Source of the DNA: Saccostrea cucullata
Taxonomy: Eukaryota
Reading direction: 5' to 3'
NCBI RefSeq assembly: GCF_032062105.1
Contig: NW_026936150.1
Location: 434,001-498,000 of the forward strand
DNA: 64,000 bases
Shown: positions 879 through 63,674 of the stretch, piece by piece
Position numbering within the stretch: position 1 is the stretch's first letter
How the letters are laid out: every line of letters starts with the position of its first letter
The notes under the pieces: model-generated
Told to the model about the DNA's origin: nothing
What the model saw: only the letters and a program-made list of their open reading frames with translations
Database searches by the model: none
Made by a program: the position numbers and the translations under genes

Positions 879-3800
879 AAGACATTCCAAACTTATTATA
901 TATCACGACATCGCTGGCATTCGGCGATAATAGTTGATCATCCGAGGACAAAAGATCATTTGATGGGTTCTCATCATAATTTCCAAGCAGTCCTTTTAGT
1001 TTTCCTTTAAATAAACAAAACAAATTAACGGAGCATGCAAATGACAATATGAAAAATTAATGTAAAACTAGAGGTACTGTGAGCAATGAGCTCACTAAAT
1101 GATACCCCCCACCTCCCATATGAATATATTGGCAGTATCCATGTTTTGCTCTGGAAAATCCAAAATATATGTCAGATCAAAAAGTAAAATAGGAGGTGCA
1201 CAATGGCAATATGTAATTAAGATTCTGTGAAAGTTTCATTAAATTTCCTTCAGTGGTATGAGAGGAGTTGCTGATAAGAGATGGGTACCCCAAAGCGTAA
1301 CAGACGGACGGACGGACGGACGGACGGACGGACGGACAGACGTACAGACGGATGGACAGACAGACGTACAGACGGACGGAAATACCGATTACTATATACC
1401 CTCCCGCTTTTCAAGCGGGGGGTATAATAAAGTTTAAAAAAAAGAGCATTGTTTTTACATTGACTAAAATAACTAAACTAATTAAAAACCTATAAAGAAC
1501 AAAAAAAAAGTATAAAGATAATTTTGAATAATATGTGTTTGTGAAACACAGATGCCCCCGTATGGCAACATAAAGAGAAGGTTAAACTTTTCTTAAATGC
1601 AAATTTGATATATTGGTATTCAAAATAGGGTATTCTCACTGGAAATACAATTGTGAAATATGAAGGTAGGCCAAAATTAAAGTTTTTCATAGACACTGAT
1701 AAATAAGGAAGTCTCCAAGGTCAGGGGCAATTAGTATTCAATGAAAGGTCTTGCCACGAAGAATACATATGTGAAGTATGGAAGCCCTAGCCCTAACTCT
1801 TCGAAAGTTTTTGTCAAGGTTTGCTTTTTTTTTTAAAGTAGGTCAAATTCAAAGGTCAAGGTCAAAGTGTCAAAGTGCTTGGTATCCAATAAAGGTTCTC
1901 CTCACAAGGATAAGATATATGAAGAATGAAAACCGTTCAAAAGTTATGGCCAATGTTAACGTTTTTTCACAGGTACGGAAATCTACAAGGTCTAGGTCAA
2001 AAGGATCAAGGTTGTTGGATCCAATGAAAGGTCTTTAACCAAAAAATACATATGTAAAGTATTAATGTGCTGGTATCTACTGTTCAAAAGATATGGCCAA
2101 AGTAAAAGTTTAAAATTTATACGTAAAAGGGGGTCAAACTCCAAGGTTAAGTTCAAAAGGTCGTTGTACTCAAAGAAAGTTTTTGATACAAGAAATACAC
2201 ATGTGAAATATAAAAGTCATGGACCCACTAAATCAAAAGGTATGGACAAGGTTAAAGTTTTTGCAGACAAACAGACAAACAGGCAGAGAGAGAGAGAGAG
2301 AGAGAGAGAGAGAGAGAGAGAGAGAGAGAGAGAGAGAGAGAGAGAGAGAGAGAGTACAAAAAATATGCCCCCAATATGTAAACTTCGTTTACGGTGACAT
2401 AAAAATTATATTTATACTATGACTTAAAAAGATTTCTTTATTATATCCAACTTTACCAGTAATATGACTTGGCTCCTGCAATTCATATACAAACCTTTGA
2501 TCTCATCCCCATGAGCAATCGGTAGAACATTCATTATCCTCTTTGAGGCTTGTATGTTGAAAGATATTTTGATATCTTTCAACATAACCATCAGTGAAGC
2601 GTCTGAACTATTGCTTTCAGTCGGGAGCAAGAGGATGGACACACCTAGAAATCAATATACGATAAATAAATGTAGTATAGAACATTATGTAGCGTCAATA
2701 GATTTAAAGTGTTTAATTAAAATACCGTTAAGATCCATCCAATTTGACTCCTCAAACACTAGAAGTTCAGAATTATGGAGAACATCAACTGTTCTGATCG
2801 AGTTAAGGCGAACTTCTAAACGCCCGGAACTATTTCCATACTCCATTACTACAGCCGTGGCTACAGTTGCAGGAACAAACGATCCTTATCATAAATGAAA
2901 GTATCTTAGAGATGAAAATATTTTTGATAATCCATGAAATTATTTAAAGTTAATGCTCAAAAGAGGTGATGTCTTTTTATCTTACCGTCGTCTTTTCTTA
3001 ATTGCTCAAAGCGGATTTGGCTTTTTAATAGTTCATCTTCTGTGTATATGTACACGAACTCACCGGCTCCATTAAATGTATAACTGAACCCATCTAGGGT
3101 AGTCATGTGAGGGTCACCGCTCGTTCTAGCTTTAAACAATGAGACGCTTTATATCAATTATAGATTAATTTCATTCCAAAACTGGTTCATAGTAGGTCAA
3201 AAACATAGAAAAATGGCGGTTGTGTGCTTTTTGTAGGTAGATTTCTTCAATCAATCAATACTCTTAGCATATTCTTTGTAAACTTATTTGATTGTTTTGC
3301 TGTATTTATAGAAGCAAATGCTATTACAGTAGGGATGTAAGGAGACAAAGTATATCCTATCTCTTGTAACACAAAGTTTAATGTGATTTATTCATTTTAA
3401 TTACCTAGCCTTGGAGGCTCGTAATTTTGACACGAGCTATAATTCCTTAATTTTAGATAATTTTGACAGAGGCTGTACGTATCTTCTTTAGCGGAAGTAT
3501 CGTTCGCGGACGGCTGTGAAAAACGACAACACTGCAGAAACGGCATGACGTCATAGTAAAAGTTGCTGACGTAAGGAACACCCTCACCATAGTGATATCG
3601 TTGATATGTGCCTCCTTCTTCTACCCTGGAGTCTATTAAATTTCCATTTGTATTATAACAGCAAACGTTATCACTGCCATCTTTGCTTTCCAAGAATGAA
3701 AATAAAAATTATAGTTCTAAACTCATATTTTGTATTAATTGTGAAATAAAAGATGAGCTTCATAAAATCATTTTAACAAGAACAATACATTCAAATGCAT

Positions 3801-6800
3801 TCTAAAATAAAAAAAAAAGTCTAGAGAACGAACGGTAATTAAAATAACACCTACAAACAATAAAAATTTCTGAATATGGCATGAAATTTTAACCCCGAAA
3901 AATTTAGAGGTCGTTCAGGTGCCTAGGAGGAGTAAGTATCCCTTGTCATAACTGCCGTAAAACGTTATGACCAGGTAGACGGAATAATCCAAAGTCTCGA
4001 GTTTTGAAAAAAAAATGACTCAAAACGTTAATTGAAATATATACTCCCTAATATTGGTTTAAAAACAATACAATGCTTAATAGTATATTTTGCAAACTAG
4101 GTTACCTTAACGGAAATGTAACTTTTGAAATACTCAAATCATGTCTATTATTCTTTGTATTACCAAAATACTACATATTTAAATTTAATTTTTGAAGTTT
4201 CTTGAGGTTATGAACTACGACGCTTCACACCGGCGCTTCATGATAAATATGCCGGAGTGAAGCGATGAAGTTCATATACCTCATGAATCTTCAAAAAGTT
4301 AAATTCATTTCTTATATTTACATTATTTTTTTTGATGACTTGCCATAAATTTACGCCGTTCAACTGTCATTTTTAATACGAAACAGTGTGCACCATATTT
4401 TTTTTTACTTTTTGATGTCAAGAGCGGTATTATTACGTAACAATGGAGATATTCATGTTTACTCGTGGTGCATACCTAATGTAGTTCATGAGAAAATATA
4501 CTGCATTTTATTTTGTAAAGAATCATAGGGGAATTTTTTTGGAAATGTAAATATTGATAAATGAATAGAGAGAAACATAAATATTATGTGGACGAACAAA
4601 TTATCAAAAATAAATAAAATATTTTGTAAGATGAATACCTTGGTCTTGGTAGTCTTACACAATGTTGGGCATCACGTCTATAGCGACAGTTGGCTTTTTC
4701 ATTTGATTCCTTTTGGAACATGTTGCAATCAGGATCGGGTTGATATTTTACGTAGTCTACACGAGCCTGCTGTATCGTACATGGGCAGGGTTCACCGGGG
4801 TCTACTGCTGGAAACGAACTTTCCGAGTTAATCCAGTTTTTACAGATCTGCCGGGCTTCTTCTCCTGACTGTGATATTAGGAAAACATCAGACCATATTC
4901 CAGGGGATGGCCTACAAAAATTTAATTCCTTTTTTGTAACTGCACACATTATGTAGTATGCGTTTATCAATTGTAATGATAAATGTCCCAAATATGGAGT
5001 CCAAAATAATATAAACTTACATTCCCCTTCTTTTTACACGGGACTTTATCTTAAGTAAGGCGACTTGCTGAGTGATGTTGAAATTAAAGTTTGTCGTACC
5101 AATAGAATTTGAAATATTTGCTACTGTATTTGAGCACTCAAAGTCTAATTTCCCATTTTTTTCCTGAAGTAAAAAGAAATTTGATTTGAAGTTTATTCAA
5201 TATCAGCATGGCATTTTAAATTTACATTTGAAAGGATGTATTTCTATTCATATAAGAATTTTACTTATTAATAAATAACAATTATTAAGAAGTGAAAGTT
5301 TAGAATACTATATTTTTCAAAAAGAAAAATTCAAGTGTGAGTATAAGTTACCTTCAGTGCGTGTACTTCAAGATCGACCGTGCTACTATTTTCTAGTTCC
5401 GGTACATTATTTTTCCACGATATTGACTGTGAACCATTTTTCCAATTGTCCGGGTCATTACGAATTACATTAGCTTTGCAAAAGACTGGATTCACTGCAA
5501 TGATTTAGATATTCTACGTGATCAACGTAAATTAAATTAATTTTGAAACAAACATTTAAAAAAAAAACAAAGTTAACTCTTCCATTTCTCTAATTTATCA
5601 AAAGTAGCTTGCCAAAAATTTATAAAGGAGCATTTTCGATACTTTGTCTTTCAAACACGTTTTGTTTTTTCCCCTTCCTGTTTCTTGAAGAGGAGTTTTT
5701 ATTAAAAGTTCTTTGACAAGACATTAAGATGAGATAACAGATGGGCAAATAATTAACAATTCTTATCCATGATGTTGTAAAAAAAATTCCACAGCATTTT
5801 AAGTTATAGAATTTGATTTTTGACCTTCATGGTTCGTGTTGAAAATGAATTAAATGGTTTTGAAATGGTACGTTAGTTGCAAATTGGAACCAAGATGTAA
5901 TAAAAAAAAGTATAATAAGTTTTTAAATTATTCTTTTGCAGATTTTTTTGTTTTATAAAATTACTAGTAGTTGTTAAAAAGTTAGTGCCATCTTCTGTTA
6001 TTAATGCTAGTCAAGCCAAAGAGGAAATAAGTAAAATATTTAACTTCTGTGGAAATCTTCCCTTACTGAATTGGAGTCCTTTTCAAATTTTGATCTATCC
6101 AGAACATGCTGGTTCAAATAAATTGATGGTTTCTAGAGGTAAATATCCTTAAGTAAAATTAAATACTTACAAACAGTGTAATATCCATTCAAATACGTGT
6201 CACTCATCCGTTTGGTTTTACTATGTAATGATACTTGTACTGTGATTTTTCCAGTATTGTCAAACCTAGGTGTGATGCAGTAAAAGCTATATTGATTCTT
6301 CTTCTCACACGTCAAAGTCTTCCCTATTCCGCTGAACCTGACTTTAAAGACATCGTACTGATCAATGCAAGGTCCGCTCAATGTAAGATGCTGACCTCCA
6401 AACAAAGGGCCGCTTCTTGGTGAAATTATCATGGTCCCTGTAGTTATAATCAACCATGATTTTACTAGATGTCAATAAAATTGTTTTCAGGTTACACTGA
6501 ATATCTCAAAGAAATTCCAATGTGTTCATTTTTGACATGATATTTAAAAGAATTACTCAGATGCGTAAGAGTCATTTGTTTTAAATAAATTAAAATAGAA
6601 TAGAAAAAAGCTATTAAGTAAATAATGAATCTTTATGTTAATTAATGATTCAGAAGTCAATTGTCCTGAAAGCAGCTATTTTCTCAACACAAGTAGGGGG
6701 CATATAAATTAATTATGCAAAGTTTGAAAATTAAAAACTGATATGAAAAGCAAAAGAAGCAGATTAATTATAAAATTTTCTTAATAAAAAAGGTAAACAT

Positions 6801-63500: not shown

Positions 63501-63674
63501 ATGATCAACCGTGCTGTTGTTTCTCTTGTACCTTGATTTTGTATACGTAGATATCTACTGTGCTACTGTTTTGAAGTTCTTTGACGTTTCCATTCCACGA
63601 TATATTATGTTCATCATTTTCCAAACTGTTTCCATTTTGGCGACTTACAAGAACTTTGCTGAAAGCAGGATTCA
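57568..63674 (-). CDS. Mesh/SUSD2-like protein, copy D (type II), exons 6-16; 5' exons beyond the right edge
   Basis: Exons 63532-63674, 62622-62767, 62245-62517, 59783-60075, 59431-59574 (NGDPH), 59174-59332, 58940-59089, 58614-58739, 58244-58489, 57794-58133 (Sushi + TM), 57568-57691 (RGHWKVF...EQNTEKC*). All in frame; exons 6-15 have the same lengths as in copy B. Confidence 0.92.
61365..62176 (+). mobile_element. Non-autonomous Helentron-like element (same family as 1530-2404)
   Basis: aaacaagacgtgtttgtgaaacac start, aaggtcaaggtc repeats, (GACA/GA)n, cccgaaacttcgtttacgcgggcataa end. Confidence 0.75.
62870..63240 (-). mobile_element. Helentron-like fragment
   Basis: tttttgtcccc..hairpin..tccgtctgtctgt followed by two aaggtcaag units. 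Confidence 0.5.

Follow-up and report, generated by a model that had tools for sequence, protein, structure and literature searches.

Organization of the array

The stretch of Saccostrea cucullata DNA analyzed here (64,000 nt of contig NW_026936150.1, assembly GCF_032062105.1, positions 434,001 to 498,000 of the forward strand; hereafter the window) raises the question of whether the run of Mesh-like gene copies that it carries is a real tandem array, and of what the proteins encoded by such an array could do. An earlier note on this DNA had described at least five gene units of two alternating subtypes (I and II) and had proposed the lineage-specific expansion of an epithelial adhesion, barrier or recognition protein. 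The array was found to be real, which confirms that observation in part. We conclude, with a probability of about 0.6, that the cluster consists of tandem birth-and-death genes of the Mesh/SUSD2 family, the working copies of which would encode GDPH-cleaved, membrane-anchored glycoproteins coating or gluing an epithelial surface. As an expansion of a known family by birth and death, the cluster is ordinary.

Six-frame translation, self-BLAST and hand-checked splice sites revealed five units, all on the minus strand and in the order D, C, B, tail, A (Table 1), lying between the end of A exon 13 (879) and the start of D exon 6 (63674). The map and coordinates of the earlier note were therefore correct. 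The exon end phases of A (0,0,0,1,1,0,2,2,1,1,1,1,1) and those of D from exon 6 onwards (0,2,2,1,1,1,1,1,1,2) follow a common scheme, and the phases of B match it if a single surplus base in exon 2 is discounted. The subtype labels also held: amino acid identity is 83% for B/D versus 64% for A/B and 57% for A/D, C exons 1-3 are nearer to A, and the tail is nearer to D. The domain layout of the units is NIDO-Ig-Ig-AMOP-GDPH/VWD-C8-Sushi-TM (Ig, immunoglobulin-like; TM, transmembrane segment), and within the window none of them shows the full domain set in a single open frame. Although five units are present, C is reduced to exons 1-3 plus a scrap of exon 4 and the tail is a single exon, so that the array is better described as five whole or broken copies of one gene type than as five genes.

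Several features speak for birth-and-death turnover among real paralogues: graded synonymous divergence (dS, synonymous substitutions per site; 0.34 for B/D and about 1.45 for A/B), the relics C and tail, the frameshifted B, and purifying selection, with dN/dS (the ratio of nonsynonymous to synonymous divergence) below 0.35.

Table 1. Features of the array, in window positions
Feature	Position	Strand	Remark
Unit A, type I, exons 1-13, open 824-aa frame	879..9215	-	splice sites canonical (GT/AG), no stop
Unit D, type II, exons 6-16, open 714 codons to stop	57568..63674	-	identical to P0002 over 499 aa
Unit B, type II, 16 of 16 exons present, with a frameshift in the assembled sequence	25327..38753	-	
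T5 run in B exon 2, source of frameshift; one base longer than aligned A and C sites	38422..38426	-	
Unit C (type I pseudogene): exons 1-3 with six single-base indels and loss of the donor GT of exon 3	54852..55749	-	
Unit C exon 4 scrap (85 nt), about 11 kb away from exons 1-3	43345..43429	-	89% to A exon 4, 68% to B
Tail: lone type II last exon with intact acceptor, phase 2, open 40-codon frame plus stop	12315..12438	-	
B exon 14 (C8 domain); D copy 58244-58489	26014..26259	-	Pfam C8-3_MUC4
B exon 10 (GDPH); A copy 2986-3129, D copy 59431-59574	27221..27364	-	no subtype-diagnostic site
Duplicated block, first copy: D last exon, intergenic DNA, C exons 1-3	54814..57733	-	
Duplicated block, second copy: type II last exon, intergenic DNA, type I exons 1-3	8279..12479	-	extra insertion near 10194-10816

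Domain architecture and proposed mechanism

Pfam searches with single exons recognized NIDO, TIG, AMOP, VWD, C8-3_MUC4 and Sushi. Matches above the Pfam cut-off were obtained for NIDO, AMOP and VWD on A, for NIDO on B and for VWD on D, as well as on the database proteins P0001, P0005 and P0006, the VWD of P0006 remaining under the cut-off because its model skips exon 13. TIG reached 25.8 bits in A exon 5 (cut-off 20.9) and fell slightly under the cut-off in P0001 (19.7). C8 was found in B and Sushi in B and D; for A, both were seen only via P0006, beyond the window. This check on exons and full-length relatives confirmed the domain order of the Mesh/SUSD2/MUC4-type architecture that had been proposed. 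The AlphaFold model of P0001 (mean pLDDT, the model's own confidence score, 85) contains NIDO, two beta-sandwiches (residues ~264-455), AMOP, VWD, a helical C8 and Sushi, followed by a disordered linker, one hydrophobic membrane helix (996-1023) and a disordered tail. Its fold matched the VWD assemblies of MUC5AC, VWF, MUC2 and FCGBP, with partial cover of the chain; a sequence search of P0001 against solved structures gave no match.

The GDPH motif lies at the start of the VWD domain (position 636 in A, 638 in B and 290 in D). It was present in 58 of the 60 top homologues, and its G, D and H are invariant across 55 aligned proteins. The proteins contain 11-17 NxS/T sites each, and the first ~18 residues of A and B are hydrophobic. 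In SUSD2, cleavage occurs at GDPH and the halves remain disulfide-linked (PMC6696261); in FCGBP, the domain cleaves itself and is stabilised by the cut (PMC10880436). Insect Mesh acts in gut junctions and in the gut lining (PMC4964579; 10.1101/2020.11.10.376210; 10.1101/2021.05.07.443077).

By analogy with these relatives, the products of the working copies would be secreted and N-glycosylated, and cleavage between GD and PH would split the chain into an outer part (NIDO-Ig-Ig-AMOP) and a VWD-C8-Sushi-TM base that retains it. The expected result is a set of two-chain, protease-resistant surface glycoproteins standing on the epithelium, for which a barrier or adhesion role is most likely. The copies themselves derive from an older B/D duplication and a younger duplication of a II+I segment, followed by deletions and decay. 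A conserved mollusc gene, described below, would keep a tail-dependent job, while the expanded copies would be partly redundant and for that reason gained and lost.

Position within the mollusc family

Trees were built with FastTree (91 rows) and with a short IQ-TREE search (24 rows), and both split the mollusc proteins into two clades. The conserved clade comprises gastropod genes, five unnamed proteins and Ostrea edulis P0181; in the expanded clade every named row is from a bivalve, the other rows being unnamed, and mussels, scallops and oysters each show an expansion of their own. Three oyster clades lie within this bivalve clade. One of them consists of Saccostrea proteins alone (support 100) and contains the window genes, which are separated from the gastropod/P0181 group with supports of 99-100 and are 30-37% identical to the conserved clade. 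Among the retrieved proteins there were no one-to-one orthologues outside Saccostrea, which upheld the proposal of a lineage-specific expansion.

The two clades also differ at the C-terminus. A tail motif was found in 13 of 13 conserved-clade proteins and in none of the 39 tested expanded-clade proteins, a zero that is inflated since several of the 39 models are C-terminally incomplete and that leaves out seven further rows, mostly partial; the motif is likewise absent from the tails of B and D. It spans ~35 residues and ends P0181, P0163, P0170, P0159 and others, and a short pattern taken from it matched 23 of the 314 proteins retrieved, of which one is probably a chance match. The Mesh-like identity given to the window genes thus stands for the architecture, but they are not the conserved mollusc Mesh-like gene; they belong to a separate lineage without the tail motif. 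The useful result is the existence of two mollusc lineages, a conserved one in which the cytoplasmic motif is fixed and one that expanded in bivalves and lacks the motif, so that "mesh-like" genes in oyster expression studies are not to be read as septate-junction Mesh. This split, together with two oddities (the C8 exon and the orphan last exon, see below), is a modest addition to what is known.

Several copies on one chromosome-size sequence were seen in Ostrea, Ptychodera, Oculina, Patiria and Glandiceps (best 120 of 400 matches); expansion is common in this family and not special to this locus. Two unnamed proteins near the top of the wide search, P0186 (4253 aa, 15 matched stretches) and P0187 (7101 aa, 10 stretches), could be true repeat proteins, or else gene models in which similar tandem arrays have been fused.

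Comparison with known systems

Drosophila Mesh and its orthologues (beetle DVSSJ2, AgMESH) share with the window genes NIDO, TIG/Ig, AMOP, VWD, Sushi and one TM, whereas the oyster cluster is multi-copy and decaying, and its tails are short and unconserved. Because of the mollusc duplications, orthology to insect Mesh is many-to-one at best. The conserved mollusc mesh-like gene (O. edulis P0181, Patella P0163, Aplysia P0170, Haliotis P0159) has the same domains and is the sister lineage; it differs in its C-terminal motif, and the O. edulis copy lies on a different chromosome-size sequence from the expanded copies. Human SUSD2 has an N-terminal somatomedin B domain and is not known to contain NIDO. 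In contrast, the window genes have NIDO, and somatomedin B was unmatched in Pfam scans of P0001 and P0003-P0006; EGF and TSP1 gave no Pfam match in these same proteins. What SUSD2 shares with the window genes is AMOP-VWD-Sushi-TM and the GDPH site (PMC6696261). MUC4 and a coral mucin4-like skeletal protein share NIDO, AMOP, GDPH-VWD and C8-3_MUC4. Unlike MUC4, the window genes have no long mucin tandem-repeat region, their NIDO directly follows the N-terminal segment, and Sushi precedes the membrane segment.

Oyster gene models already in the database (P0006, P0002, P0001 and P0003-P0005) include A and D, as P0006 and P0002, in partial or exon-skipping form, and the genes are annotated automatically as mesh-like or SUSD2-like. 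In the literature searched (open PMC papers and bioRxiv), the cluster, its subtypes and the tail split were undescribed.

Uniformity of the C8 and GDPH exons

Between subtypes, identity is 54-61% in exons 5-9 and 48-68% in exons 11-13, versus 85-97% in exon 14, which encodes the C8 domain. The uniform tract extends into the first third of exon 15. Against other oyster clades, exon 14 is 44-48% identical, and there it evolves at the pace of its neighbours. In the quartet formed by B, D, type I and type III, sites grouping B with D numbered zero in exons 10 and 14 and 5-10 in each of the other eight exons. A column-shuffle test of exon 14 (0 of 5000) ignores autocorrelation and overstates the significance. 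When metagenome contigs were searched for a type I DNA pattern, 20 matches were obtained, with no confirmed relative among them.

The near-constant C8 and GDPH exons are most likely a surface under added constraint in this branch. The competing explanation, that exon 14 and the start of exon 15 were made alike by gene conversion, is a less probable one that nevertheless retains some weight. It would account for the lack of sites separating B and D from types I and III in exon 14, where two sites instead group B with type I, for a tract that ends in the middle of the Sushi domain, and for an exon that is not slow in other oyster clades; intron 14 is also the most similar of the eight short B/D introns (82% versus 63-76%). 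However, exon 14 is slow between the orthologues of two species as well (6/82 versus 119/514 differences, ratio 0.32, p 0.0007), exon 10 is similarly uniform with an A/B proportion of synonymous differences (pS) of 0.54 versus 0.64 overall, and GC content at third codon positions (GC3) shows no clear increase (p 0.07 and 0.18). Constraint is favoured over conversion because exon 14 is slow between species orthologues and synonymous divergence in exon 10 is ordinary. Two narrower versions of the idea were also considered: recent conversion of exon 10 was rejected on its synonymous sites, and GC-biased conversion in exon 14 was unsupported by GC3.

Should the pattern of a constant base and variable outer domains be functional, it would mean that the Mesh/MUC4 scaffold has been put to a new use on the surfaces of bivalves, and it would give a handle on the binding targets of the NIDO, AMOP and C8 domains.

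Selection and alternative functions

Nei-Gojobori estimates of dN/dS per domain were 0.12-0.20 for A/B, 0.16-0.29 for A/D and 0.16-0.33 for B/D, none of them approaching 1, in a pairwise comparison of three sequences in which dS between types I and II is near saturation. The copies show purifying rather than diversifying selection. The suggestion that the cluster acts as a diversified recognition system therefore found no support, since every domain gave a value of 0.12-0.33.

A number of points weigh against a barrier or adhesion glycoprotein as we propose it. Besides the limits just given, pairwise dN/dS averages are blind to positive selection at few sites. No unit can be seen as a complete intact gene within the window, so all visible copies may be dying. 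The tree supports are SH-like, without bootstrap, and the incomplete models behind the tail-motif count have been mentioned. Neither a named insect Mesh nor a vertebrate SUSD2 was among the 113 and 120 matches listed. Which mollusc lineage keeps the ancestral job was judged from a single feature, conservation of the tail, and the function of the cluster proteins is drawn wholly from distant relatives.

Four other functions were weighed. The first, which we consider improbable, is diversified recognition, with a constant membrane-proximal base and variable outer TIG, Ig-like and AMOP domains directed at different microbes, glycans or cells. The contrast between exons 5-9 and exon 14, the rapid gain and loss of copies, and tails that vary across the lineage are what such a system would show, and mosquito Mesh influences parasite infection (10.1101/2021.05.07.443077); against this stand the low dN/dS of all domains, the outermost of which, NIDO, is among the most conserved (0.13, A/B), and the few copies per subtype among the matches listed.

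Somewhat less probable still is a role as mantle or shell-matrix proteins anchoring the organic matrix at the calcifying epithelium. P0024, a member of the family in M. gigas, bears the same name as a mantle gene that may belong to this family, and the coral skeleton holds a NIDO-AMOP-VWD mucin4-like protein (PMC4890752). P0024 belongs to another oyster clade, though, and many copies occur also in shell-less animals such as Ptychodera. A mantle study (10.1101/2023.01.19.524809) may place a member of the family among the mantle genes.

We regard it as rather unlikely that the copies are redundant versions of septate-junction Mesh itself, sealing the gut or gill epithelium. The domain order is that of Drosophila and beetle Mesh, but molluscs have a separate conserved gene whose tail motif is kept from limpet to oyster and to which the window genes are 30-37% identical, and frequent pseudogenisation is ill-suited to an essential junction protein. 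An equally speculative idea is that modular receptors arose from a spare Mesh duplicate, with a nearly invariant GDPH/C8 base docking a shared partner, outer domains that are specific to each subtype and recognize different ligands, and exchangeable cytoplasmic tails, B being spliced to the duplicated tail exon 13 kb downstream once its own last exon had decayed.

Duplication history and copy number

The end of a type II gene, the intergenic DNA and the start of a type I gene occur twice in the window (Table 1). Pieces of the second copy aligned by blastn to 54814-57733 at 81%, 79% and 83%; gap-free identity of the non-coding DNA is 84% and 86%, and that of the C/A exons 87-89%. This divergence is too large for haplotypes, which excludes an assembly duplicate and shows that one segment, running from the end of a type II gene into the beginning of a type I gene, was duplicated. 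B and D differ more: their short introns are 63-82% identical and the DNA past the stop 69%, and with the dS given above this points to a B/D duplication older than that of the II+I segment. A repeated II+I unit with later deletions, or a larger unit with two type II genes, would each explain the unit order. Of the proposed two-gene [II+I] unit, the duplicated II-to-I junction stands, but B has no type I gene behind it and a subtype III exists.

The array is larger and more mixed than two alternating types, a description that proved too narrow. As judged only from the sequence lengths listed with database proteins, which is how copy number in the flanks was assessed, the length of 688,260 shared by A and D is also listed for P0005, P0007 and P0023. 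P0005 is another type I protein (92% to A), P0003 and P0007 represent a third subtype, and P0023 is a member of another oyster clade. In S. echinata, one 36-Mb sequence carries orthologues of types I and III together with two other clades. That the array is an artefact, with the haplotypes of one locus laid end to end, is very improbable: the many partial models on short contigs in S. cucullata and the homopolymer frameshift in B would be expected from it, but the closest copies are 11-16% apart even in non-coding DNA and pseudogene exons, they differ in insertions and intron lengths, and the S. echinata orthologues share one sequence.

Characteristics of the individual units

Unit B had been taken as intact. 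Its exon 2 measures 295 nt versus 294 in A, and its last exon (from 25418) carries a 17-nt and a 15-nt deletion and a premature stop; a homopolymer slip was considered for the frameshift in the last exon and rejected, since the sequence aligns as a 17-nt deletion. Read through with X, B is 92% identical to full-length P0001, gap-free in exons 1-15 and with equal branch lengths, and for this reason the exon 2 lesion is either an assembly error or very young (a null allele). Part of B exons 1-3 was found in 20 of the 23 listed sequencing runs, at shares of 0.07-0.42; four of these 20 runs are recorded as RNA, which is not taken as evidence of expression or tissue.

The description of C as a type I pseudogene agreed with its lesions (six 1-base indels and a lost exon 3 donor). 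Over exons 1-3 it shares 87-89% identity with A, compared with 67-78% for B. DNA following the exon 4 scrap resembles A intron 4 down to ~43075 (blastn, 6707-7154 versus 43075-43462), and tblastn and blastn found no trace of C exons 5-16 in the window.

Aligned with D exon 16, the tail shows 6 mismatches in 124 bases; it is ~84% identical to the last exon of B. Its difference from D is below the 14.6% of the flanking block (p about 0.002) and the ~12% of the C/A exons (p 0.02). It may be the relic of a gene, perhaps deleted recently, or it may serve as an alternative last exon, spliced to by B from 13 kb away, upstream of the tail, B's own last exon being damaged. Such splicing is made less plausible by two facts: the first deletion of B would by itself let the remainder of its last exon degenerate, and polyadenylation-like signals are present in B itself.

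Unit A encodes a signal-like N-terminus, NIDO, TIG, a second Ig-like domain, AMOP, GDPH and VWD; its exons 14-16 lie past the left edge of the window. It corresponds to P0006 (protein mesh-like, S. cucullata), to which it is identical over 783 aa. After the identical part, the P0006 model omits exon 13 as well as the initial 23 residues encoded by exon 14, a hint that A may carry a lesion just outside the window.

Unit D encodes an Ig-like domain, AMOP, VWD, C8, Sushi, TM and a tail. Exons 1-5 are not within the window, being beyond its edge or lost. P0002, an S. cucullata protein named SUSD2-like, has a model that starts in exon 7, and the similarity of D to B ends 14 nt upstream of D exon 6; D may therefore be truncated at its 5' end. 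The D branch was about twice that of B or P0001 in the 24-row tree (0.094 versus 0.044), and relaxed selection may be the cause if the 5' exons were lost.

Mobile elements and repeats

A broken retroelement integrase (41252-42099, minus strand; Pfam Integrase_H2C2, E 2.6e-11) lies between the C exon 4 scrap and the start of B, close to the point where C is truncated. The spacer from the tail to A holds a reverse-transcriptase-like fragment (10140-10613, plus strand; no Pfam match) that is missing from the D-to-C copy and that we take to be Penelope-like; a related piece is found in D intron 8 (60717-60970). Within the 12-kb stretch from B to the tail are two decayed reading frames on the minus strand (14815-15429 and 17725-18642), without a Pfam match at E 0.01, which are presumably LINE-like and transposase-like (LINE, long interspersed nuclear element). 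Arrays of a 158-168-bp unit, in 2-4 copies, occur at 31947-32932, 43873-44291 and 45476-46063; we assume that they resemble oyster satellite or Helentron-internal repeats. One of these arrays lengthens B intron 4 to 5.7 kb.

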